A stretch of DNA of 64,000 bases from Okamejei kenojei. Taxonomy: Eukaryota. Each line of letters begins with the position of its first letter. Position 1 is the stretch's first letter. The notes under the pieces are model-generated. The model was given only the letters and a program-made list of their open reading frames with translations, did no database searches and was not told the origin of the DNA. The stretch covers positions 9,796,001-9,860,000 of the forward strand of contig CM069149.1 of assembly GCA_035221665.1 (NCBI GenBank), in the 5' to 3' direction. Of this stretch, positions 1,335 through 43,266 are shown one piece after another. A program made the position numbers and the translations under genes.

Positions 1335-1637
1335 AGGGCCTGTCCCACTTTCCCGAGTTACTCATAAATTCTCACGAGTTTTCCCCTTGATTTCAAACTC
1401 GGAGAATGTCCGTAGGAGGTTGTAGGAGTCCGTAGATACTTCGTAGCGGCTTGTTATGCCAGCTGTAGGTACTAGGGCATCAGGCATGCCGGGACGTTTT
1501 TTCCAGCATGACAAAAAAGTCCACGAGTAAAAAGATAGTCGGGAGGAGGAGTTCGTAGATCACAAAAATCTTAATATTTTTTTTTTTTTTAAAGTTCTTT
1601 CAACTCGGCAGAGGACTTGGAAAGTGGGACAGGCCCT
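1335..1637. mobile_element. PIF/Harbinger-type MITE with TTA target-site duplication
   Basis: tta|AGGGCCTGTCCCACTTTCC...GGAAAGTGGGACAGGCCCT|tta. Confidence 0.88.
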
Positions 1638-1912
1638 TTACACTCTTTCCAGAATGCAGATTCCTACAGTGCGGTGACCAGAACCAACCACAACATTCCA
1701 GCGGTGAATCTCTGCAGGTGTAGAAATGCCAAAAATGCTGCCACTTTCAGCCATAATGCCAAATACAATATCCAAGTCAATAAGATTATTGCTACATGTA
1801 AAATTGTGCATTATTCTGGCACTAGCATACTGAAATATACATGTGGATTCTAACGTCTAATCAAAACTTAAATTAATCCCATTGAATCAATTAAGTGATG
1901 TTGGCAATACTG

Positions 1913-2061
1913 AAGATAGACACAAAATGCTGTAGTAACTCAGCGAGTTAGGCAGGTCAGGAGGAAACGAGATCCAGAGATGTTGCCTATCCTGCTGAGT
2001 TGCTCCAGCATTTTTTGTCTATCTTCGGTATAAACCAGCATCTGTAGTTCTTTCCTATACA
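1913..2061. mobile_element. Penelope-derived short fold-back element, 12-bp TSD
   Basis: Inverted arms agatagacacaaaatgctg.../...cagcattttttgtctatct. TSD ttggcaatactg at 1901-1912 / 2062-2073. Confidence 0.85.
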
Positions 2062-2295
2062 TTGGCAATACTGTCTCGTTGACCCCACAAAGCTGGAAGC
2101 AGTTCTGGAATGAAATTCCGACGGCTAGGGACTGAGTGTACATATTCTGAAATGTTTTGTAATTGGTGTTTTGTATCATCTCATGACTGCAAAATTTGAG
2201 CAGCCAGCTGTACCACCATTTTATATTCTACAGCAATTCTTCCCAATCAAACAAGCCGTTTTTTTTGTAACTCCACACCAATGTTATACTACTAG

Positions 2296-3004
2296 TAGCA
2301 ATGTTACAACATTTTGCGATTAAAAAAAATCAAGCCTGCAATTTATCCCATCAGATAAAACATAAAAATAAGTTTAATTTGACACCCAATTCACTTTCAT
2401 ATCTTCAGTATTAAAAAAGTTATGGCCATTTTCATACACAATATAACATGATTTTTATATTTCATTTTCATGAATTTATAGGCCAAATGGAAGGAATTTA
2501 GTGTGTAATTCCTGTAAATTAATGGCCATTTAAATCAACTAGCGAGTGGGTTTTAGTGGAACGCGGTGGATTGGAACGTTGCGGTTTGCGGTGAAGTCGG
2601 CATGAAAAACACTGCCGGTTCATACATTTTCTTTGTCCCCATTTCGCAACATGAAAATGTGATTAAAGGCTTCCTAAAACCAAGTTTTAATGTAAAAATA
2701 AACGGTGTACTTTATTTTCTCCACTACGTAAATTCCTTCCCGTTGTCGGCGCTCATGGCTTTAGAAGATGATTTTTAAATTATTCTAGCTAATAAATAAT
2801 CTAGCGTAATTTAAAAATATCTTCATGAATGAAATGTCGGAGCGATATTTCTTCAGCAACGAAATCTCCCGACATGGATCGATTTGCCCTGTCTGTGGAA
2901 AAACGGCACTTTAAACACGCCCCCCTCTGAAAGGCGCCAAAGTCACGCACACGGGGAGCGGCAGAACTGCAGCGCTGCTCAAGGTAAGTTTTGTAACATA
3001 CCTA
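2296..3004. mobile_element. Non-autonomous DNA transposon, superfamily uncertain
   Basis: Imperfect TIR TAGCAATGTTACAA...TTGTAACATACCTA, flanked by direct repeat ctactag (2289-2295 / 3005-3011). Confidence 0.7.
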
Positions 3005-3439
3005 CTACTAGGCGCACACTGCATGAATGAAGAATCATTGTTAAACATCAACAAAAGCAGAAAATTAAACATCCCAAATTCTTTATTAGTGCATGTTGAG
3101 GAAGTGGGAAATTATGGACTTTGGTAACCATATTTGGAGGACGATTAGCAGATTATGATCGATTTGCTGGGGGGAAAAAAAAAAAAAAATCAGCACAACA
3201 ATTTGTCAATATACTGACACATTATTTAAATTCGAGAGGCAGTTGGTGATGATAGTTATTTGGCATCACCCAATTTCAATGTATTCCTAAGGAATTATGC
3301 TACATTAATAAATAAGCATCTTGTTCATTATACAAATTATCTTATGGCTATCGAGCAGCATTGTTTTTTAAAAAGGGGAAATAAACGAACCACCTTTTTT
3401 TTTGTCTGTCGTAATTGTGGCAGAACCTCCAGTGTTTAC

Positions 3440-4050: not shown

Positions 4051-4918
4051 ACTGTCCAGGCTGTGCTGTTGTACCATTCATCACTACAATCAAATAAACC
4101 TGTCAATTCAATTTAAGATGCTTACAAACTGCTTGCTTCAGTAGCCTGGAAAGCTTTTGTTTGGTTTCATGAGACCCAAATGAGATTTTACAATGAGTGA
4201 ATCTATAATTACTGCCTCGCAAACTCTCTGGACCCAACCAAAAAACTAACATCGCCTACATTTCTTAAAGCGCCTCATAAAATATGAAATTATAGAGAGT
4301 TTATTTTTAATTATTCAATTTCCGGCCCAATATTTTCATATTTTAAAAGATGGTACCTTTTATTTTTGGCTTGAAGGTGAATTGTTAAACAATTGATCTT
4401 TCCCCCTGCTTGAAGACATAGAGCTGTTGCATACCCAGCATCTCTGATGAACTGATGTCCAATATCAGCAAGTGTTGGAAAAAAGAAACTGAAATCTTGC
4501 AAGAGAATAAAGTCTTTGTGAAAAGCTGTCTATGAAAGCAGCAACAAACATCATGGCTGTTACACATACTCTGGGCAAGTAACTTAGTGCAAAAGTTTAT
4601 ATTTGCAAAATGAGCACAGCATAATGGATATTGTTTAAATACTGGGGTGCGGATTTATGCAGAGTAGTAAATGGATTTTCTGCATAAATGGTGTGTGATA
4701 ACAAGAGATCCAAGCAGTTGAATAGAGGAATGGGAACAGGCAACAGTGGTTGGATGAAAGACAGTATATACTGTAATTGTGCTCAATTAGTATCTATTCG
4801 TATCCATAGGCCACTGTTAGCACTGTCTGAAGAAGGGTCTCGACCCAAAACGTCACCCATTCCCTCTCTCCAGAGATGCTGCCTGTCCCGCTGAGGTACT
4901 ACAGATGTTTGTGTCTGA

Positions 4919-5031
4919 TGGGCCAGTCCCACTTGGCGATTTTTTTTTGGCGACTGCCGGCATTATTGACTGACGTATCAGGTCGCTGAAATAGTCGCAG
5001 CATATCATATCGACGCGCTGTGTTTTATTCC

Positions 5032-5081
<50 letters not shown>

Positions 5082-5196
5082 AGTGTCACAACATTTTTTT
5101 TGTCGCCGCTGGATATTGAAATGTTCAAAATCTTTTGGTGACCCTGATATGACGGCGGCAGTCGCCCAAAAAAAAAAAACCAAGTGGGACAACCCT
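4919..5196. mobile_element. Harbinger-type MITE (contains C48 tract) inside a Penelope-derived repeat
   Basis: tga|TGGGCCAGTCCCACTTGG...CAAGTGGGACAACCCT|taa. The empty paralogous site gtgtc-taa-cttc is at ~7800-7811. Confidence 0.85.
5033..5080. repeat. Poly-C tract (48 nt)
   Basis: Directly visible, inside the MITE at 4919-5196. Confidence 0.95.
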
Positions 5197-8100
5197 TAAC
5201 TTCGGTTTAAACCAGCATCTACAGCAGTCCCTTCTTTATACACTGTTAGCATCACTTGGTTTAGTAATAAATACTTACAAGTGAAAACCCAAATGTTTAC
5301 CAGGTGTTTGTCTTCATTATTCCAACTCAAGATTCTAATTCAAAAAGTTCAACTATATGCACTTCCAATAGATTGAATATTCTTTTTGCCCACAAGTCTA
5401 CATTGCATGCAAACTAAGAACAGATTTATATACACACCCAGGAGTATTTGTTCATTCAAAACATTGCCCCAAGCAAAGCCAATTAGATGCACACTAATAG
5501 TTGCATTATTCTTAACCGGGGAAAGATCGACAAACATTTCCACTATCAAGTCAACCAAACAACCAAGCACTTTTTCCCGCAATTAACTTCAATACGTAAA
5601 AAACTCTATCAGAAGGCCACACTTTTGGGGACTTAGTGAAAGGTATTGTGCTCTGCGCTTTGGCATAAGGTTGTACATGATGTCGCAGTTTCAAAGATTT
5701 CACAAGCAGAACCATAACATTTATTTGTATTTAACAATTGCTTTTTGCTAAAGTCCAGCAATACCACTTTGTTTTGCCAGAGCCACCGCTGAATTAGTTC
5801 TTGTTGGCTTACAATCATAACCTGTGCCTTGGTTTAGTAAGCACCACGACCGCAAGTTGAGTTATCTAGGTGGCCCCAATGATGCCGACTGGCTCACAGA
5901 AGCCTTGCACACTTTTGACAAGGCTTGGAAGGATTCTGTGAGAAGAAACTGGTTGTTGACTTACATCAGATGCATATTCCTGTCACGGGGCCTCCTCTAT
6001 TGTATTAACACAAGACACCTGTGAGCATTCAAAGCAATGCCCCAGAGGCAGTCAAAGATGCCCAATAACACCTGCGTGATTCTTAAACTTAGAAAGGGAG
6101 AAACACTTCAATTATTGTCAGCCAAAAGATCAAACAATTTGAACCTTCAACCAAGTAAATTCAATATTTTTTAAAAGTTGATTGAACAGAAATAAATTGT
6201 AATGTGTTACACGGGCATTATTTCCTTAACCACACACAGGGTGTCGACATGGACATGGTGGACTGTAAGGTTCATTGAAAGTGGAAGGGTGGGAGATGCC
6301 GCAGAGCATCCTGAGAAGCTTGATTGTTGGTATCATTATCATAGTGCGACTGCGAGAAGGGGAAATGTTGCTCAGAACTCAAAGCCATCACAGATTAAAA
6401 AAAAATAATTGGAGAGTTGGTTTGATGGGTAAGTAATTTTAATATGTTGGATACAGAATTTGGTGCGTGCCAAAAAACTGGGTGACAATAGATCAGTATT
6501 AACAGGTAGTATGACGAGAACACTCTGCCCTCGCTGGAAAAGCTCACGATCTTCCTGAAGATCATCAGTGAACCAATCTTCAATAAAGCATCACTCTCTC
6601 CAATATGTTGTGTATTAACAAACTATAGCAGAATGGTTAGGTTCACCACATTGCAAGCTACATTAATAATTTGCAGTTCCGTTCAAATCCACCCACCTAT
6701 GAGAACATCAAATAGTATCATGTTAGTTACTAATCAAAATACATAATTTTTTTATTCTGTATTTATTTTTAATGCACTTCTTGCCATGGTTGACTAAATT
6801 CCTGACTGCGAGATTTTAATGGGATTTAACTCCTTTTAGTTTGGCAGTTAACAAAAATAAGACGGGTTAACAATGCTATTGAAATTGCACAGACAGGAAA
6901 TTAAACCATTAAAGTCTTAATCATTTCCACTCCAATATGCATTACTTAATGGATGGAGGCTTGCAACAATTATATTAATGTCGAAAGATTGTTGTTCTTC
7001 TCATATAAGCGAAAATCCAAGTGTTTTATTTTTGTGCTTATTTTATCCATTTCACATTTTGGTAAATAATTATAAAAGCTTGAAAGGAATTGACAAGAAT
7101 CATTTGTGAAAAGTTGACTTCCATGAGATGGGTTCAAATTGAACAAGCAACCAATCAAAGATTTGCAATTCAGCGGGACTGGCAACATCGGTTTAAACCG
7201 AAGATAAAAAAGTTACATTTTGCAATTCCTACCATCAGTTGAAGGCAGATGTCCTTTCATGCAATAACACATGCAGATTACCAATATCAGCTTAAAATGG
7301 TGCCTCAAAACATAAATTTCTCTTTTCACAATTGAAAGGCTTACGTTATTTTTAATAAAACAATTCCCTTTTACTTTCAGCTTTTCACCCCAAAAATTAT
7401 TTCTTTATGAAGTGAATCAAACTAGTAAAATGTATTCAGTGTAAAATTCAGTTCCCCCTTTATCCAAGTAACTTGCCTCTCACTCACGACCTCCCACTTA
7501 TTCTTTCCCTTTTTTGTTACAGAAAACTCAATCAAGACGTCACCTTTTACTTTATCTTCTGCCCTAGGTCAAGTATTGGTCACAACCTCGGGGTTTTTCA
7601 GTGGTTACAATCTGCAGCAATAATCAGCTAGCATTCCTGCCCATTTCCTCCCCGAGTACTGTAATTGTGCTCAATTAGTATCTATTCGTATCCATAGACC
7701 ACTGTTAGCACTGTCTGAAGAAGGGTCTCGACCCAAAAACGTCACCCATTCCCTCTCTCCAGAGATGCTGCCTGTCCCACTGAGGTACTCCAGCTTTTTG
7801 TGTCTAACTTCAGTTAAAGCCAGCACCTACAGTCCCTTTCTTTATACATTGTTAGCATCACTTGGTTTAGTGATAAATACTTACTAGTGAAAACCCAAAT
7901 GTTTACCAGGTGTTTGTCTTCATTATTTCAAGTCGAGATTCTAATTCAAAAAGTTCAACTATATGCACTTCCAATAGATTGAATGTTGTTTTTGCCTACA
8001 AGTCTACATTGCATGCAAACTAAGAACAGATTTATATACACACCCAGGAGTATTTGTTCATTCAAAACATTGCCCCAAGCAGAGCCAATTAGATGCACAC

Positions 8101-8239
8101 TAATAGTTGCATTATTCTTAACCGGGGAAAGAGCGACAAACATTTCCACTATCAAGTCAACCAAACAACCAAGCACTTTTTCCCGCAATTAACTTCAACA
8201 CGTAAAAAACTCAATCAGAAGGCAACACTTTTGGGGACA

Positions 8240-8890
8240 AGAGCCTGTCCCACTTACGCGACTTTTCAGCGACTGTCTTCGACCTTCAAGCTCGAGGGCA
8301 CTCGCCTGAAAAACCTCGAGCTGGATCGACCGTCAGCACACACACACACATCGGAAATGTGGGGGCCAGGGAAAGCGGGGGAGCACTGTCTGAAATTCAC
8401 ACCCATGATGAACAGGAAGGTAAAAGATGGCGGGCACAGTGTGCGGTAAGCCTCTTAGAGAGTGTGGGGGGGGGGGGGGGGGGTGGAGGAAAGGAGTGGA
8501 GACAACTTTTAATAAAGTTTAGCATTTAACATTCCCGGCTGGTTTTCCTTGGTTCTGAAAACTCCAATGAGCCAATTAAAATGTCCGGTCAGCAAAGGAG
8601 ATTGCCTACGGCTCCCTCGACTGCCTGCAACCACATGGCGACTTCACTACCACAGCACTATGAAGTTCAAAAGAACCATGCCGACCAATTTTTATTTGCA
8701 GAAAAGTTTTCAGCATGCTGAAAATGTTTCTTCTACCAAACTGAGACCGCGTGTATGTGGGAACTTCTCTCGAGCACGAAGGAGAGTTACAATGACCTCC
8801 AAGGACCACGTGTCCACCATGCTGCGAGTTTGTGGCAAGTGCAAACTCTTCTAAACTCGCAAATTAGGTCGCCATAGTGGGACAGGCCCT
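8240..8890. mobile_element. Harbinger-type MITE (~650-bp subfamily)
   Basis: AGAGCCTGTCCCACT...AGTGGGACAGGCCCT|taa. The empty paralogous site ggggac-tta-gtgaa is at ~5627-5640. Confidence 0.85.
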
Positions 8891-10734
8891 TAAGTGAAAT
8901 GTATTGTGCTGTGCTCAGATTAAATCTGCACTTTGGCATAAGTTTGTACATGTCGCAGTTTCAAAGATTTCACAAGCAGAACCATAATATTTATTTGTAT
9001 TTAATAATCACATTTTGCTAAAGTCTAGCAATACCACTTTGTTTTCCCAGTTCTTGTTGGCTTACAATCATAACCTGTGCCTTGGTTTAGTAAGCACCAC
9101 GACCGCAGGTTGAGTTATCTAGGTGGCCCCAATGATGCCGACTGGCTCACAGAAGCCTTGCACACTTTTGACAAGGCTTGGAAGGATTCTGCGAGAAGAA
9201 ACTGGTTGTTGACTTACATCAGACGCATATTCCTGTCACGGGGCCTCCTCTGTTGTATTAACACAAGACACCTGTGAGCATTCAAAGCAATGCCCCAGAG
9301 GCAGTCCAAGATGCCCAATAACACCTGCGTTATACTTAAACTTAGAAAGGGAGAAACACTTCCATTGTCAGCCAAAAGATCAAACAATTTGAACCTTCCC
9401 TCACAAGTAAATGCAATATGTTAAAAAGTTGATTCAACAGAAATAAATTTGTATTAAGTGTTACACGGGCATTATAGCGTTAACCACACACAGGGTGAAA
9501 GATATGAACCTTGTGGACAATAAGGTTCATTGAAAGTGGAAGGGTGGGAGATGCCACAGACCATCCTGAGAAGCTTGATTGTTGGTATCATTCTGATCGT
9601 GTGCGAAGGAGAAATGTTGCTCAGAACTCAAAAGCCATCACAGATAAAAAATAATTGGAGAGTTGGTTTGATGGGTAAGTAATTTTAATATGTTGGATAC
9701 AGAATTTGGTGCGTGCCAAAAAACTGGGTGACAATAGATCAGTATTAACAGGTAGTATGACGAGAACACTCTGCCCTCACTGGAAAAGCTCACGATCTTC
9801 CCGAAGATCATCAGTGAACCAATCTTCAATAAAGCATCACTCTCTCCAATATGTTGTGTATTAACAAACAAGCAGAATGGTTAGGTTCGCCACATTGCAA
9901 GCTACATTAATAATTTGCAGTTCCGTTCAAATCCACCCACCTATGAGAACATCAAATAGTATCGTGCTAGTTACTAATCAAAATACTTAATTTTTTTTAT
10001 TCTGTATTTATTTTTAATGCACTTCTTGCCATGGTTGACTAAATTCCTGACTGCGAGATTTTAATGGGATTTAACTCCTTTTTAGTTTGGCAGTTAACAA
10101 GAATAAGACGGGTTAACAATGCTATTGAAATTGCACAGACAGGAAATTAAACCGTTAAAGTCTTAATCATTTCCACTCCAAAATGCATTACTTAATGGAT
10201 GGAGGCTTGCAACATTTATATTAATGTCGAAAGATTGTTGTCCTTCTCATATAAGCGAAAATCCAAGTGTTTTATTTTTGTGCTTATTTTATCCATTTCA
10301 CATTTCAGTAAACAATTATAAAAAGCTTGAAAGGAATTGACAAGAATCATTTGTGAAAAGTTGACTTCCATGAGATGGGTTCAAATTGAACAAGCAACCA
10401 ATCAAAGATTTGCAACTCAGCGGGACTGGCAGCATCGGTTTAAACCAAAGATAAAACCAATCAAATTTTGCAATTCCTACCATCAGTTTAAGGCAGATGT
10501 CCTTTTGTGTAATAACACATGCAGATTACCAATATCAGCTTAAAATGGTGCCTCAAAAGATAAATGTCTCTTTTCATAATTGAAGGGCTTACGTTATTTT
10601 TAATAAAACAAATTCCCTTTTATATTAAGATTTGCCCCCAAAATACTTCTTTATGAAGTCAATCAAACCAGTAAATGTATTCAATGTAAAATACAGTTTC
10701 CCCTTTAGCCAATAACTTGCCTCTCACTCGCGTC

Positions 10735-11660
10735 GTCAGGCTGTTGTTTGTAGACTACAGCTTGGTGCTTAATACCATCATCCCTTCCAAGCTGGTTACC
10801 AAGCTCATGGAACTGGGCCTCTGCAATTGGATCCACGACTTCCTCATCCACAGACCACAGTCTGGTTGAATTGGCAGAACCACTTCATCCTCAGTAACAA
10901 TTAGTACGGGAGCACCTCAAGGCTGCGTGCTCAGCCCCCTGCTTTACTCACTCTATACCAATGATTGCATAGCCGGTCATAGTGCGAAATCCATCATCAA
11001 GTTCGCCGATGACACCACTGTGGTTGGACGAATCACAGATGGGGACGAGTCAGAGTATAGAAGTGAGTTCGACTGACTGACCAAATGGTGCCAGCGCAAC
11101 AACCTGGCTCTCAACATCAGTAAGACCAAGGAACTGATTGTGGACTTTAGTAGGGAATGGATGAGGACCCACAATCCTGTTTATATCAACGGGACCATGG
11201 TGGAGACTGTCAATAACTTCAAATTCCTGGGCGTGCATATATCAGAAGATCTTTCCTGGACCCAGCACACCGATGCAATTGTAAAGAAGGCAGATCAGCG
11301 ACTCTACTTCCGGAGAAGATTACGGAGATTCAGCATGTTGAAGAGGATTCTCCTAAACTTCTACTGGACCACTGCCCAGTCCATTACTGGCTTTGACCTC
11401 CCCACCGTCGAAGGGATCTATCGTAGTCGCTGCCTCAAAAAGGCAGCCAAAATCATCAAGGACCCACACCATCCTGGCCACACACTTATCTCACCACTGC
11501 CAAAGGGAAGAAGGTACAGGAGCCTGAAGACTGTAACGTCCAGGTTCAGGAACAGCTTCTTCCCCACAGCCAGCAGGCTATTAAACACGATGAATAAGCT
11601 ATGAGCTCTGAACTGCAAAAGTACATTGTTATTTGCACCATGTTTGTTATTTATTGAATT
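10735..11660 (+). mobile_element. Rex1/Babar LINE, 5'-truncated RT fragment
   Basis: Translates GAPQGCVLSPLLYSLYTNDC...IIKFADDTTVVG...RFRNSFFPTASRLLN with stops and deletions. Absent from duplication copy 1. Confidence 0.9.
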
Positions 11661-12349
11661 TTTTTTTTTCCCCCCCATTATAAAACTCAATGAAGACGTC
11701 ACCTTTTACTTTATCTTCTGCCCTAGGTCAAGTCTCGGTCACAACTCGGGGTTTTTCAGTGGTTACAATCTGCAGCAATAATCAGCTAGCATTCCTGCCC
11801 ATTTCCTCCCCACACAAATGTTGCTGTCCATCAAGGTCTGTCCAACACCAGTGAACAGACTGCTTTTTCTTTGAGATCCAAGTTCAGAAATGGACATCAC
11901 TATCCTTGACAAAGGTACCTCGCGAATCCTATAGAATATTTTTGCCAATCAATGGTACAATTATCTCAAAAGAAAACTACTTTACATAATGAGTATAATT
12001 GATATTATAATTCCCTGTGCTTTAAAACAGGATTGGTGTGATTTTGTCAGAGTCAAGACTTGTCTATTTAGCAGGATTCGTGCATTTGCTTTATATGATT
12101 TATTGTAAATATAAAACATAATCTCCTTTAAAACGGTGGGAATATATTGAGTTCCTTCTTTTTGCACAAATCCCATCACTGAAAATCTTGTAGTCTTCGA
12201 AGCCAGAGAGACCTGTAGCATTGTTATATTACAAAGCAAGCACTAAAATGTTCTGGAACTTTTTCACCACATAAAGAGTTATGGAAAATATTACCTGATT
12301 AAAATGGCTAATTTTGTAATTATAATCATACCATATATTTAAGGATTAA

Positions 12350-18619: not shown

Positions 18620-19320
18620 ATCAGTTGGAAATATGGGTGTAAAACTGGCAGATGGAGTGTGAAGTGTTGCACTTTGGGAGTCAAAGTCTGTGGTGGATGT
18701 TCATGTTAAAATGTGTTTTTGAGTGATCTGTTGCTTTTAATTGTATGACTGACCTGGCCTATGAAATTCCTTGTATGTTGCAAAACTTAGCGAATAAAGT
18801 GTGATTCTGTTTCTGAAATGGGTCATGAAAGTATACAGGAAATGGCAGGACCTTCAAAGAGTATTGATATACAGAGAGATCTTTTGGTGCTGTCATGTTC
18901 ACAGGGAGATCAGGTTATAAGGATAGGTTCGAGAAACGGGATTGTTTTCTCACTAGCATTAGAGGGGCAAACCAATACAGGTATACAAATTGATGAGAGG
19001 CACTGGTTGGGTAGATAGATGCAGATTTTCTTAAGGGTGGAAATGCCAAATAATAGGGAAAATAGTTATACAGTGAGATGGGGAAATTTAAAGGAGATCT
19101 GCGAGGCGAGTGTTTTTTGAATTGCACCAAAAGTGGCAGATGACATGAACACACTGCTGGGGTTGTGGTGAAAGATATGATAGCAACATGTTAGAGACAT
19201 TCAGATAAACACATGGACATACAAGATATGGGGGACAGAGGCTACATATAGGCAGTTTGGCATCTTAATTGGCATAGACATCTTGGGCCTCTGACTGTTC
19301 TCCACCCTTCTGTGGTCTAT
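18620..19320 (+). mobile_element. CR1 fragment, degenerate, with an internal Rex1-like tail insert
   Basis: tggcagatggag...tgtgaagtgttgcactttggga; gggaaatttaaaggagatctgcgagg. Confidence 0.6.
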
Positions 19321-19339
19321 GCTGCAAATATTATGAGCA

Positions 19340-19652
19340 ATAATACACCCAAAATGGCAAGTTGGTCACAAGAAAAGTCAGATATTGGTACATCTTCCAT
19401 AGCAAGTAATAAGAATTTTATCAGTTGAGAATAATCGGCATGGAGCGTTTGGAACAACAACTATTAGTACAATCATAACACGACAGGAGAAGCTAACACA
19501 TGCGCAGCCATCTATAGGTAGGAAGGAACTGCAGATGCTGGTTCACACTGAAGATAGACACAAAATTGCTGGAGTAACTCAGCGGGACAGGCAGCATATC
19601 TGGAGAGAAGGAATGGGTGACTTTTCGGGTCGAGACCCTTCTTCAGACTGAC
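19340..19652 (-). mobile_element. Penelope-derived element carrying ~170 bp of transduced flank, 11-bp TSD
   Basis: TSD tattatgagca at 19329-19339 / 19653-19663 encloses a copy of ~26470-26673 plus the element. Confidence 0.85.
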
Positions 19653-21087
19653 TATTATGAGCAGCATTTCTGACAGGCAATGTTGTTGTTCCAATCGACT
19701 TCTCAATCCTGTCCAGTTATTCTCATTTACGTTTGCACGTGCAGTCTATTATTGCACCAAAACATATCCAGAAACAGAGTTTATCCCAGGTTGTCCAGTT
19801 ATCTGTCTAATTTGCCTAAGATTCTGAATTCACATTCAGAATTCTAAAAACATTTTGATTTTAGTATAGTTGAATGGAGACCTGAAATATCCAACGTGCT
19901 CCATGTGTGGTCTCATCAAGATTCCCATTTTCATTTACAAATTCATCCATGGTTTCATCTCTCTCCACCTCTGTGATTTACACCAGCTCTATAACCTTTT
20001 CAGATGCGCTGTCCTTTAAATCTGACCTTGCGTGTTCTCAATTGTAATCAATCTTCCAGTTGCTAAGAACTTTGGCCCTGGAATTCCCTCTTAAACCACT
20101 TTCACCTCTCCTCCTTTATAAATCCAAGAGATATTTTCAAAGGCTGCCTGAAAGGAGCTTCACATAAGTGATTATCAAATAAAATTTGACAAAGATCCAT
20201 ATGTGGAAGTATTAGGGCAAATGACCTTTGGTCAGAGGAAAATCTTAAAGTGTCTCAAAGACGTAGAAAGGCGAGACAGAGGACTGAGGGCCACAAGTGA
20301 CTAAAGAAAGAAATTCCAGAGAAGTGGTTTAAAAAGGATTAAAATAGATAAGAGATTAGGCTCTGAGAACAGCATACCTCAAATTGAATACTTGAAGACT
20401 GAGATTGTAAAAAAAAAGGGAGATACGAGGTCATGAATGGATTTGTAAACAGGGATGAGATTTTTTACATTGAGAAACTTAGGTACACTACACTTTGATG
20501 AACAACTTTGCTCTCTGATTTATGTAAAGAATACAGAGACACTGGGGAAAGAGCAAAATAGATTTACAATAATGGTAGCACAACCTGGGGAAGTTTTACT
20601 TGCTGAGAACAAAACTCTTTCCTCTAATACATAAGTCCAAGAGGGATTGGACAGATGTTTTTCGACATTATGGAAGAATTTGATAGCTTATATTCCTAGA
20701 GAGGGTCACCACCCAGTAAGACCACCTTATGGACTCCCGACCGTCCTTCTTACCTTGTCACTGTCATGTTCTGAAGTGTTCTGACTCTAGAATTTTGGTC
20801 TGAATGGTGGAGAACCTCCTCCCAATGCACACTGTAGAAGCCCTTCCCCAATGTATTCCTGAATGCTTTGCTATCTGACAAAACCCAACCCTAGGTTTGC
20901 CCGCTGTTGAAGCAAGGAAGGAACTTTAATCATTTTTAAAATAGAGATTTCTCCGATATCGAGACAAAGCTATTAAATATGAAGGAAATAATTACAGCAT
21001 GAGAAAGTAGTTTTCGGAAAGAGGTAATTTAGATCATAGAAATTTGGAACAAATTCCAACTGATCAGAGGTTACAAACAAAAAAGGA

Positions 21088-25599: not shown

Positions 25600-25770
25600 A
25601 AGATATTTCATTGTCATTGTCACCGGGCACTTTGCTGCTGAGGTAGGCTTGTGGTTAGAGTTACGCAATGTCTTTCAAGTATCTGACGTTTGATGGGAAG
25701 AAGCTATTCCTCAACATATAGGTGATGGTTCTCAAACTCCTGGATCTTCTGCCCTATGGTAGCAGTAAGA
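25600..25770 (-). mobile_element. Rex1/Babar 3' fragment ending at the orphan Tc1 TIR
   Basis: gggaagaagctattcct...ctcctggatcttctgccc is the reverse complement of the Rex1 RNSFFP region. Confidence 0.7.
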
Positions 25771-25913
25771 TGTATAAAGATGGCCTTTATTAAAATCCGA
25801 CAATGTGCACTTTAACCACATGTGAGTTTTTCTATTACAAATCTCAAATTGTGGAGTACAGACGCAAATAAATAAATGATGGGTCTTTGTCCCAAACATT
25901 ATGGAAGGTACTG
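25771..25913. mobile_element. Orphan outer part of the same Tc1 TIR, followed by TA
   Basis: Near-identical to 38069-38213; ends ggtactg|ta. Confidence 0.9.
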
Positions 25914-26673
25914 TAGATCACCTTGAATCAAACTGCTGTGACACAGTTACACAGCAATCACTTTGTAATGTCCTGTAATCACTCCAAAGCAGATTTATAA
26001 GCACCAACAAATCAGCATTTAGCTCAGCAATGAATCTGTGTCAGTGTTCAAAGTATGTCTTGGGGCACACTGAATAACTCGAGTGAGAGCAAAATCTTTC
26101 CTCTCTCTATTCATTGCTGTTTTAAACAAGTCTGTTGCATAGGATAGGAATGAGACAGCTCTCAAACAAATATTTATTCCAAAATTGATGCTCCCATTAA
26201 TGGTGTGGCCACTAATTGGTATGTGTGATGTACCACTCAACCGGAAACTATTTCATTACAACTACCTGCCCACTTCATACCAAAACACCTGGCAAAGAAT
26301 ATCATTCTACCCACACAAAAATTTGGCTTTTCAGCAACGTTCCTGGAAGTTTTGTGGCTTTAGCTACTCAAGACATTTCAGAAGTACCTGTTACTGCAAG
26401 TTGCTACTTGCAAATCATCACAGTAGCACAAAGGAACGCCCAATGACCTTTGCCTGGATATACCTACCACACACCCAAAATGGCAAGTTGGTCACAAGAA
26501 AAGTAATTCTCAATTAAAGTCAGATATGGTTACATCTTCCATAGCAATTAATAAGAATTTTCTCAGTTCAGAGTTTAACAGTTATTTTGTGAATAATCGG
26601 TGTGGAGTGTTTGGAACAATTATAATATAATCATAACACTACAGGAGAAGCTAACACATGTGCAGACAACTAT

Positions 26674-26876
26674 AGGTAGGAAGGAACTGCAGTTGCTGGT
26701 TTAAACTAAAGATAGACTAAATGCTGGAATAACTCAGCGGGACAGGCAGCATCTCTGGAGAGAAGGAAAGGGTCAAGACGTCTGAAGAAAGATCTCTACC
26801 CGAAACGTCACCCATTCCTTGACTCCAGAGATACTGCCTGTCCCGCTGAGTTACGTCAGCATTTTGTGTCTATCAT
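26674..26876. mobile_element. Penelope-derived fold-back element, 11-bp TSD (putative transduction source)
   Basis: TSD cagacaactat at 26663-26673 / 26877-26887. Confidence 0.85.
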
Positions 26877-27259
26877 CAGACAACTATCGGGTTATATTAG
26901 GGTTTCCCAGTAGTCTGGCAAATAAGGATTTCCATCAACTGTAAAGATATTCAAGGATAGGAGATGAGGAAAGATAATTCAGGATGACAGTATTATTTCT
27001 GGGAGCTGAATGAATTTTACTATTTCCCCTGTTGGCCATCGAGTCCATGGAACGAATCACAAACTGTAATCTCTGATATTTTATCCAATTGCCTATTCTT
27101 CATTTTGGAAGCTATGTGCATTGGTGCTTTATTCAATCACATGCCAGATATCCCCCCCGAGGCTTGTATACACCTCTGTACATAAAAGAGGATTACAGAC
27201 AGAAGTGGGACTTTTGGCCAATTTTCCCTTTGCCTAACTGAGTCGGACGTTAAAATTCC

Positions 27260-36697: not shown

Positions 36698-38213
36698 TTT
36701 TGGTTTCACCATGTAGAAATTACAGCTGTGTTTATACATTGTTCCCCCCCCCCCCCCCCCCATTTCAGGGCACCATCATGGTTGGGACATGGCTTTACAG
36801 GTGTTTGTAATTTCTCGGGTGTGTTTAAATGCATCATATATGCAGGTACAAGAGAGCTCTCAGCACCTAGCCTTTCCTCCAATCTTTCCATCACCTTTGG
36901 ACGCTTTTATTGCTGTTTATCAACGAGGACCAAAGTTGTGCCAATGAAAGTCAAAGAAGCCATTATGAGACTGAGAAACAAGAATAAAACTGTTAGAGAC
37001 ATCAGCCAAACCTTAGGCTTGCCAAAATCAACTGTTTGGAACATCATTAAGAAGAAAGAGAGCACTGGTGAGCTTACTAATCGTAAAGGGACTGGCAGGC
37101 CAAGGAAGACCTCCACAGCTGATGACAGAAGAATTCTCTCTGTCATAAAGAAAAATCCCCAAACACCTGTCTGATAGATCAGAAACACGCTTCAGGAGTC
37201 CGGTGTGGATTTGTCAATGACCACTGTCTGCAGAAGACTTCATGAACGGAAATACAGAGGCTACACTGCAAGATGCAAACCACTGGTTAGCTGCAAAAAT
37301 AGATGGCCAGGTTACAGTTTGCCAAGAAGTACTTAAAAGAGTAATCACAGTTCTGGAAAAAAGGTCTTGTGGACAGATGAGACAAAGATTAACATACCAG
37401 AGTGATGGCAAGAGCAAAGGATAGAGACGAGAAGGAACTTCCCAAGATCGAAAGCATACCACCTCATCTGTGAAACACGGTGGTGGGGGTGTTATGGCCT
37501 GGGCATGTATGGCTGCTGAAGGAACTGGCTCACTTATCTTCATTGATGATACAACTGCTGATGGTAGTAGCATAATGAATTCTGATGTGTGTAGACACAT
37601 CCTATCTGCTCAAGTTCAAACAAATGCCTCAAAACTCAATGCCGGTGGTTCATTCTTTAGCAAGACAATGATCCCAAACATACTGCTAAAGCAACAAAGG
37701 AGTTTTTCAAAGTTAAAAAATGGTCCATTCTTGAGGGGTCAAGTGAATTGCCCGATCTGAACCCAATTGAGCATGCCTTTTATATGCTGAAGAACAAACT
37801 GAAGGGTACTAGCCTCCAAAACAAGCATAAGCGAAAGATGGCTGCAATACAGGCCTGGCAGAGCATTACCAGAGAAGACACCCAGCAACTGGTGATGTCC
37901 ATGAATTACAGACTTCAAGCAGTCATTGCATGCAAAGGATATGCAACAAAATACTAAACATGACTACTTTCATTTACATTACATTGCTGTATCCCAAACA
38001 TTATGGTGCCCTGAAATGGCAGGACTATGTTTCAACACTGCTATCATTTCTACATGGTGAAACCAAAATGCATAAAAATGGCCTTTATTAAAATCTGACA
38101 ATGTGCACTTTAACCACATGTGATTTTTTTTCTATTACAAATCTCAAATTGTGGAATACAGAGGCAAATAAATAAATGATGGGTCTTTGTCCCAAACAAT
38201 ATGGAGGGCACTG
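36698..38213 (+). mobile_element. Tc1/mariner (IR/DR type) with inactivated transposase; outer part of left TIR missing
   Basis: Transposase remnants ~36925-37957: paired-like HTH (VRDISQTLGLPKSTVWNII), GRPRK, VKHGGGGVMAWACM, PDLNPIEH. Start lost, with stops and frameshifts. Right TIR ~37990-38213 has two tcccaaaca.tatgg DRs and ends gggcactg. Confidence 0.93.
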
Positions 38214-39489
38214 TGCATTACACTCCTTGATGATTTCATCAAATGAAAATGAATTATACACTCAGGAATTCAATGGCTGTATCCCCATTTAGCTAGGAGG
38301 TTAATTGCTGGGATTTTAAAATAGTTTCTAGGATAGCTTTCTGCTTTATCTTTGGAATTATAATATTGGTATTGGACGTCAATGTTTTAAAATTCTCTTA
38401 CTTTAGATTTTTAAATTGGTTTATGAAGTTACACTAAAGGGCCGTAGTACTCTGATTTTTGATTCTGGTTCTTTGTAAAGCACAAGTTTAAAATAATTTC
38501 TTAAATGTACGTAGCTCTTCCTTCAGTGGAACATTTGCTTAGTCTTCAGCCACAATGTTGCATTTGTAACCAGAGGTCATGGTAACAAAGTTATGTAATT
38601 GTGTTTGTTAAACTCCCAACAAACATTTAACACCTCTTGCCTCATTGAAGGATGGATGTTCCAACATATTCCATAATTACAAATGAGCGAGACTCACATC
38701 CAGTAATAGAAAAAAAATCAAACCAACCAATTTAGGGGGAAAATTCACAACTTCAATATCAATTATAAATACATTGCCTGAATCTAATTGTCTGCTATAT
38801 ATTACATTAAGTGCTGGGGGGAGCAGTTTAGAAGTTGATAAAGTATATGATCTATATTCACATTTATGAGAACTGTCAGCATGACTGATACATACCGCTG
38901 GTGGGCTTAACAAATGCAAGAAGGATGCTTCAAAGACTAGAATAAGCAATCATTACAATGTCCCAAAACATTATTTTCTCTCAACAGTCACATAATTATT
39001 TCTACTTCGAAACACCCACAGCAACAGTAAAACTTTACACCACTTGCTCAGCTGTTAAACATACAGAGTGTGTTAACAAGAAAAATACACTGTGCAATAA
39101 ATTTATTTATTTATTGTGGCTCCTGATTTTTCACCTTTACCCCATTCTTTCCTGAACCAGAAACTACTGACAGTATTCAGTTCCACTAGTCTTTTATCCA
39201 AATGGCAATTGTGCATGAACCCGAAAATTGACTGCAACATTTGCAGAACTCAATTGCCAGCTTCGCCACTGGCAGTTAATCTCCCAAACTGTGGCTCAGT
39301 ATATCAACCCTCAGTCCAATTAACGACCCAAACTCACTGTAAAGTTACCCAAAGTATCTGGGGAGCTACTCAATGATTGAGGGAGAAACAAAATTAATGT
39401 TACAAGATGAAAGCCTTTCATCAGAGCAAAAAATGTTGGAAATCAAACTTTCCAGTTGCAATGTGTAGATGTATTGAAAGCATTGGGCC

Positions 39490-43215: not shown

Positions 43216-43266
43216 CCATTTTCTAGGTCTACCCCTAGGTCGTTTCTCACCAGTGGGCTCAGCTTT
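43216..43266 (-). CDS. HMGA2: HMGA2 coding exon 3 (KAEPTGEKRPRGRPRKW, AT-hook 3)
   Basis: 51 nt between acceptor tgttag| and donor |gtaagt. Size and peptide match mammalian HMGA2 exon 3. Confidence 0.97.

Follow-up and report, generated by a model that had tools for sequence, protein, structure and literature searches.

The window, by which is meant the whole 64,000-nucleotide stretch of Okamejei kenojei DNA analysed here, carries the first three exons of HMGA2 on its minus strand, at ~47.9, 46.0 and 43.2 kb in window coordinates. Exon 4 lies ~61.6 kb to the left of the window (at ~-61.6 kb) and the last exon at ~-79 kb; all of these are taken to be HMGA2 exons from their motifs. Intron 3, which is ~105 kb long, holds two insertions of Penelope-derived sequence, at 19.3 kb and at 26.7 kb, which are referred to below as daughter and donor. 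The copied strand is the HMGA2 sense strand, and the target site lies downstream of the donor along HMGA2. An earlier note on this DNA had placed the reinsertion in the same intron and had read the copied strand as HMGA2 sense, and both statements stand: the two sites share intron 3, and the gene is on the minus strand, like the copied element. Its further proposal, that the donor lies within an inversion, fares less well. A limited test, covering the 56 repeat ends in the interval from 10.9 to 43.8 kb, turned up no convincing pair of inverted TSDs, and a 13-bp match between 21.2 and 30.1 kb, considered as a trace of such an inversion, is a direct match and does not fit. The features that the argument needs are the following.

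43216..43266, minus strand: HMGA2 exon 3; the intron after it contains both donor and daughter
19329..19339, plus strand: left copy of the daughter TSD, tattatgagca (11 bp, 27% GC)
19340..19344, plus strand: 5-nt filler that does not match the donor
19345..19356, minus strand: start-motif mimic, 10/12 like the family's first RT start motif
19345..19504, minus strand: copied 3' flank of the donor (from alignment and genome search)
19505..19517, plus strand: inherited, diverged half of the donor TSD (11/13 match; cagccatctat at 19505-19515)
19518..19652, minus strand: Penelope-derived monomer (tail and hammerhead-like core), whose 5' end falls on the 5' boundary most often seen in the family
19653..19663, plus strand: right copy of the daughter TSD (11 bp)
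26471..26662, minus strand: unique 3' flank of the donor, with the start-motif mimic at 26471-26482
26663..26675, plus strand: left copy of the donor TSD (cagacaactat at 26663-26673; 11 exact, 12/13)
26676..26779, minus strand: tailed arm of the donor, 5'-truncated or deleted beside the hairpin centre
26780..26876, plus strand: inverted tail-less arm of the donor, ending at the first start site
26877..26889, plus strand: right copy of the donor TSD (13 bp with one mismatch; 11 exact at 26877-26887)

Other repeats lie nearby. Directly to the left of the daughter, 18800-19320 is decayed sequence reminiscent of CR1-type LINE 3' ends. At 36698-38221 lies a 1.5-kb element, presumably Tc1-like, which has terminal inverted repeats and a frame resembling a transposase; one of its ends recurs by itself as a 150-bp fragment at 25766-25916. 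A ~3-kb tandem duplication (4769-11811, 93-98% identity) includes a copy of the Penelope family that is interrupted in one of its versions.

The family to which both insertions belong is abundant. In the 864 kb around the window its profile detects 363 arms in 285 clusters, and the family covers ~7.8% of that region. Long copies ending in this unit encode RT followed by a C-terminal GIY-YIG segment, with two cysteines between GIY and YIG (the Pfam matches, E 0.0012 and 0.00036 for GIY-YIG and 0.2 for RVT_1, are all below curated cut-offs, and the motifs are visible directly). The 3' ends are bimodal and ~35 nt apart: among 262 strong arms, 94 end at profile positions 95-109 and 128 at 130-139. 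Two-arm clusters are almost all head-to-head (65/69), and 44 of 55 hairpins combine one tailed with one tail-less arm. The TSDs are AT-rich and 9-15 bp long, with exact ones in 33/285 clusters against 0.65% of random controls. Monomers start within the first ten positions of the profile in 141 of 166 cases (57 are longer copies that continue upstream), and the 5' end of the daughter is therefore the usual one. Truncation at the 5' end affects 23 of 44 tailed hairpin arms and is far commoner in hairpin arms than in monomers. The family is a true EN+ Penelope-like element (PLE), with RT and GIY-YIG, an optional tail, head-to-head hairpins and short TSDs; the earlier note had likewise called the element Penelope-derived. 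The family's cysteine-rich linker may place it in the Neptune clade, and the unit contains letters that look like a hammerhead core. A minimal hammerhead motif (min-HHR) is described in PMC4209133, and the EN+ features seen here match those of EN+ PLEs in PMC8557442 and PMC3846280. Rfam gives no match at gathering level at either copy, and the fold of the monomer is not notable. Cleavage by a ribozyme was considered as the source of the donor's truncation and rejected, there being no peak of 5' ends at that point (2/58 tailed arms). Elsewhere (L133-L142, from ~1219), two or three Penelope hairpins ride as cargo in a young repeat that is at least 1.4 kb long, with copies 97-99% identical and 766 search candidates; what had been presumed to be a composite of arms around a captured core is in fact such cargo.

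Read on the plus strand, the daughter consists of TSD, 5 filler bases, 173 bp of flank, a 135-bp element and TSD, with 313 bp between the TSD copies when the filler is counted. The element is one monomer (profile positions 4-136) on a single strand, and the sequence to its right is single-copy by genome search. Microhomology at the left end of the insert amounts to at most 2 nt; the filler may come from snap-back of the TSD, from bases of a family RNA or from a small indel against the donor. No poly(A) tail is found at the insert, which is accordingly not a member of the L1 type of 3' transduction (a tail is not expected for PLEs). The donor is a head-to-head hairpin, its tailed arm covering profile positions 35-136 and its inverted tail-less arm 6-106, and its fold is very stable (z -10). 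Most of positions 4-36 are absent from the tailed arm; a remnant, positions 19-28, survives in front of it. Between the two copies of the donor TSD lies nothing but the element.

The duplication of sequence between the two sites is real. Positions 19345-19517 align with 26471-26676 with 16 substitutions in 169 aligned bases and gaps of 16, 20, 4 and 1 nt, and the divergence of the element (8 in 91 aligned bases) is similar; the distance from donor to daughter is 6,954 bp. The copied flank is on the 3' side of the element's sense strand, and no 5' sequence of the donor was copied. The two bases after the tail motif are a standard pair in 24 of 29 copies, and a variant occurs in the donor and the daughter only (2/29). 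A search of the 2.76-Gb genome with the flank, which the earlier note had proposed, returns two matches, whichever copy is the query (two multi-copy repeats used as controls gave 40 scored matches), in a search that skips very common words and by which rarity is not provable. Since the flank has these two matches and the daughter contains half of the donor TSD, the nesting of the TSDs indicates that 26.7 kb is the donor; the order and timing of the insertions are read from this nesting alone. The resulting structure, in which one TSD brackets an element and unique flank 3' of an identified donor, is that of a 3' transduction. Most of what the earlier note had read here is thereby borne out: the match of 19345-19515 with ~26470-26675, tattatgagca around flank plus element, cagacaactat around the 26.7-kb element alone, the diverged half of the latter inside the 19.3-kb insert, and the direction from 26.7 kb to 19.3 kb. 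It was mistaken in having the flank followed by the same element, since a monomer in the daughter is matched by a hairpin with an incomplete tailed arm in the donor. (Slippage during copying was considered for the 16- and 20-nt indels and set aside, as P is 0.04-0.08 against the indel background, 13 per 608 substitutions, of a segmental duplication nearby. That duplication, in L075-L086 at window coordinates -377 to -265 kb, is tandem, ~60 kb long and ~4% diverged.)

The point at which copying of the flank began is distinctive. On the minus strand, the copied flank terminates in CATTTTGGGTGT, which agrees at 10/12 positions with the motif preceding tail-less 3' ends of the family (a natural example lies at 26860-26871). 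This mimic is the best match to the motif in the 2 kb downstream of the donor. Its per-site P is 1e-4, which with correction for 5 motif windows becomes 0.004 (11 positions) or 0.011 (31 positions), in a post hoc test devised after the sequence had been seen; longer motif windows are weak (P 0.009, 0.04, 0.06), and the tail-end motif has no match at the copy start (P 0.87). The mimic played no part in the earlier note's choice of this site. The insert ends 7 nt past the motif core, and 7 is the commonest offset, found at 5 of the 19 ends that are measurable among 27 TSD-verified ones (range 1-9). The RNA fold around the mimic is mildly stable (z -2.1). Other local duplicates, of which there are 27 low-copy pairs, score lower for the motif at their ends (best 8.9 vs 10.4 here). 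In PMC11167929, a PLE RT starts within its RNA, at two sites by which the tail is defined, and priming further 3' is weak. Because initiation is internal, a 3' transduction needs some reason for starting in the flank, and such transductions should be rare. The mimic favours copying by the Penelope RT from a read-through RNA over repair.

A survey of the family, also suggested in the earlier note, provides the donor-daughter distance given above and no further transduction in 285 + 104 clusters. TSD-bracketed 3' extensions occur in 6/285 clusters of the 864-kb region (itself chosen because of the 19.3-kb case), against 5.5 expected by chance, and a donor is found for the 19.3-kb case only; the other five candidates are three family-internal matches, one interrupted element and one local 5' capture. 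Among 104 clusters in 46 loci from elsewhere, no second 3' transduction with a donor was found. One hairpin (L024:1315-1756) has a TSD-like repeat on the inside and, further out, a 12-bp repeat that brackets 168 extra 3' bases, ending in a loosely motif-like stretch; a search for its donor gave a single genome match and no donor, and the arrangement may be due to chance.

A TSD of at least 9 bp within 20 nt of the ends is seen in just one of the 27 other local low-copy pairs, and these pairs look like the repair-mediated class described in PMC2671141. Local duplicates abut family edges in 8 of 28 cases against 2.8 expected, an enrichment that is weak (5/25 without the 19.3-kb case and two pieces of one tandem duplication). 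Several further copies involve local DNA. A young long PLE copy ~118 kb rightward of the donor (L061 ~4500-5350, window coordinates 144519-145345) carries at its 5' end, within a 15-bp TSD, 88 bp derived from adjacent DNA (98.9% identity), and is a clear local capture during insertion. Two more copies (L065 ~4390-5760, at 185.4 kb, and L070 ~1500-3200, at 236.1 kb) have 5' ends templated locally, from ~1 kb away, and no TSD was found at either. At -380.3 kb (L074 ~9610-9860), a 190-bp copy of sequence 8.9 kb away is followed by a possible 3' end of the family, decayed and scoring under the profile threshold. At 370.1-371.1 kb (L103-L104), an old inverted copy of an element's 3' flank sits inside another element 0.7 kb away and looks like a templated insertion of the repair type.

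The most likely mechanism, with a probability of about 0.58 (the weights given to this and the other readings being matters of judgement), is that PLE RT copied a read-through RNA of the donor, a 3' transduction. The earlier note had proposed an RNA-based 3' transduction; the mimic, which it had not noticed, supports it, and repair-mediated duplication, which it had not weighed, is considered below. The events would have run as follows. A Penelope-like element inserted first at 26.7 kb, as the hairpin with a TSD that is seen there. Soon afterwards, with the family still active, a minus-strand RNA would have extended through the tailed arm into the flank, started either from the element's own 5' boundary or as HMGA2 pre-mRNA. 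(The pre-mRNA is a compatible template that fits strand and order; a transcript from the element's boundary fits equally, and the two are not separable.) The RT-GIY-YIG protein of the family would have made a staggered cut 7 kb off, and RT would have been primed ~205 nt past the tail, at a chance mimic of the first start motif. Copying of flank, half-TSD and element as far as the usual 5' boundary would then have given the insert with the 11-bp TSD that is observed. The first 36 element bases of the daughter would stem somewhat more probably from the donor before erosion of its centre than from a switch to a family RNA. The TSD of the daughter is within the family range of 9-15 bp; the body of the element, as compared below, does not tie daughter to donor, and the want of a second case among the 285 clusters or the 104 from elsewhere also counts against an RT origin.

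Alternatives to this account differ in how much of the daughter they take from the donor. That 19.3 kb is the older site and 26.7 kb derived from it is hardly credible: the 19.3-kb element is indeed nearer the consensus (5% vs 8-12%) and more complete, but half of the 26.7-kb TSD lies inside the 19.3-kb insert, and its partner is found only at 26.9 kb. It is very improbable, if a little less so, that the flank belongs to some composite unit of low copy number or that both sites were supplied by a third donor, since lost; a genome search that skips common words leaves room for this, but either version of the flank finds only two matches, the donor flank continues into unique sequence, and the donor TSD takes in nothing besides the element. 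More weight, at a level that is still doubtful, attaches to a daughter of mixed parentage, with only flank and tail end from the donor and the rest from another family copy, either through a template switch during copying or through later conversion of one copy; this is compatible with RT transduction. The donor arm is only the 17th closest to the daughter among 128 arms, and no subfamily with the daughter's private changes was found among the family copies. Three 5' bases of the daughter, which are consensus, are in neither donor arm. Site 108 is dimorphic (of 58 subfamily copies, 35 have T and 20 have G) and differs between daughter and donor (G vs T), although at 9% divergence one transversion suffices for this, and at CpG site 105, three bases off, the two share a non-consensus base, the only one that they have in common (the site is changed in 26% of copies). 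The donor's present structure alone cannot yield the daughter's 5' end, which leaves two options, loss of the hairpin centre from the donor after the copying or a jump of RT to a different RNA of the family. Truncation is common among tailed arms and could come about in both ways, by later loss or by a switch. About half of such arms are truncated, possibly from birth, which speaks for mixed parentage; that truncation so strongly prefers hairpin arms over monomers also fits later erosion of palindrome centres. From these comparisons, derivation of the daughter's element body from the donor is not demonstrable.

The alternative to RT transduction that has to be taken most seriously, though it is clearly the less likely of the two, is repair-mediated local duplication, in which a staggered break at 19.3 kb, perhaps made by the PLE endonuclease, would have been patched with ~320 nt of DNA from 26.7 kb, copying would have stopped at the hairpin centre, and the element would have been a passenger. 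Random targeting would hit a site within 7 kb about 5 times in a million, which means that action in cis is required of either mechanism. Retrotransposition is not known to land beside its source. Repair duplication does so (PMC2671141), and thus accounts more naturally for the short distance, with no new biology. The copies in that study are proximal, up to 619 bp long, often furnished with filler and sometimes chimeric, with TSDs in 6/39 cases; the present two copies, with their filler, are within that length. The very stable donor hairpin, the 28 local low-copy pairs in 864 kb and the capture of local DNA at 5' junctions of family copies (in the clear case with a 15-bp TSD) are all congenial to repair, and a large scan will select rare look-alikes. 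On the other hand, repair predicts neither the start-motif match nor an end at the family's 5' boundary, and the combination of filler and TSD without microhomology is seen in 0/39 proximal cases of PMC2671141. The distance of 6.95 kb exceeds the 5-kb group of that study (its cut-off is ad hoc), yet 5/27 of the other pairs here are also more than 5 kb apart. On balance, 3' transduction by the Penelope machinery, from a cryptic start that can be identified, is the most likely origin of the 19.3-kb insert, and a credible, known alternative stands beside it.

The case can be compared with several known systems. In L1 3' transduction (PMC6431247), likewise, element and unique downstream flank share one TSD and the donor is traceable. 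Here, by contrast, the enzyme is of the Penelope type, poly(A) is missing, the daughter is 7 kb from the donor, and a start-motif mimic, in place of a poly(A) signal, would fix the 3' end. Capture of host DNA by Penelope elements of Adineta vaga (PMC3846280), for which read-through transcripts and template jumps are proposed, also has PLE machinery moving host sequence with a TSD, but the cargo there is between pLTRs. In the present case it is outside, 3' of a single short unit with its donor nearby, and its outer end is the 12-nt mimic and no pLTR. Poseidon of Anolis (PMC11167929) has two start sites, an optional ~35-nt tail, AT-rich targets and weak 3' priming; these are results in vitro on a different family, with neither a cryptic start in host flank nor local targeting reported. 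Repair-mediated duplications (PMC2671141) similarly comprise two nearby copies of a few hundred bases with filler at one end, but are usually less than 5 kb apart and have microhomology or deletion instead of a TSD, and their ends are not expected at start and stop signals of an element. Host capture by PLEs (PMC3846280) and 3' transduction by L1 (PMC6431247) are thus already known. A search of mostly open-access literature, a weak negative, found no PLE 3' transduction that starts at a host mimic or lands beside its donor, and the available part of bioRxiv 10.64898/2026.07.22.740005 has no match for transduction or tail.

The 19.3-kb case is a single, old intronic event with no sign of function. 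What it may contribute concerns the enzyme. Choice of start point by a PLE RT has so far, in the accessible literature, been shown only in vitro and for one element (PMC11167929); a natural start at a host mimic, if true, would point to a short sequence determinant for PLE RT, and donor and daughter would be ready-made substrates for the in vitro assay already in use. Should the 7-kb distance stem from insertion out of tethered nascent RNA, it would represent a mode of targeting not found described for PLEs. It is conceivable, if speculative and on the whole unlikely, that PLE proteins load on nascent pre-mRNA, start at any ~12-nt mimic of their internal start motif that lies downstream of a bound element, and insert in cis within the same transcription unit. 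Were that so, PLEs would be local shufflers of intron and exon DNA where they make up several percent of the genome.
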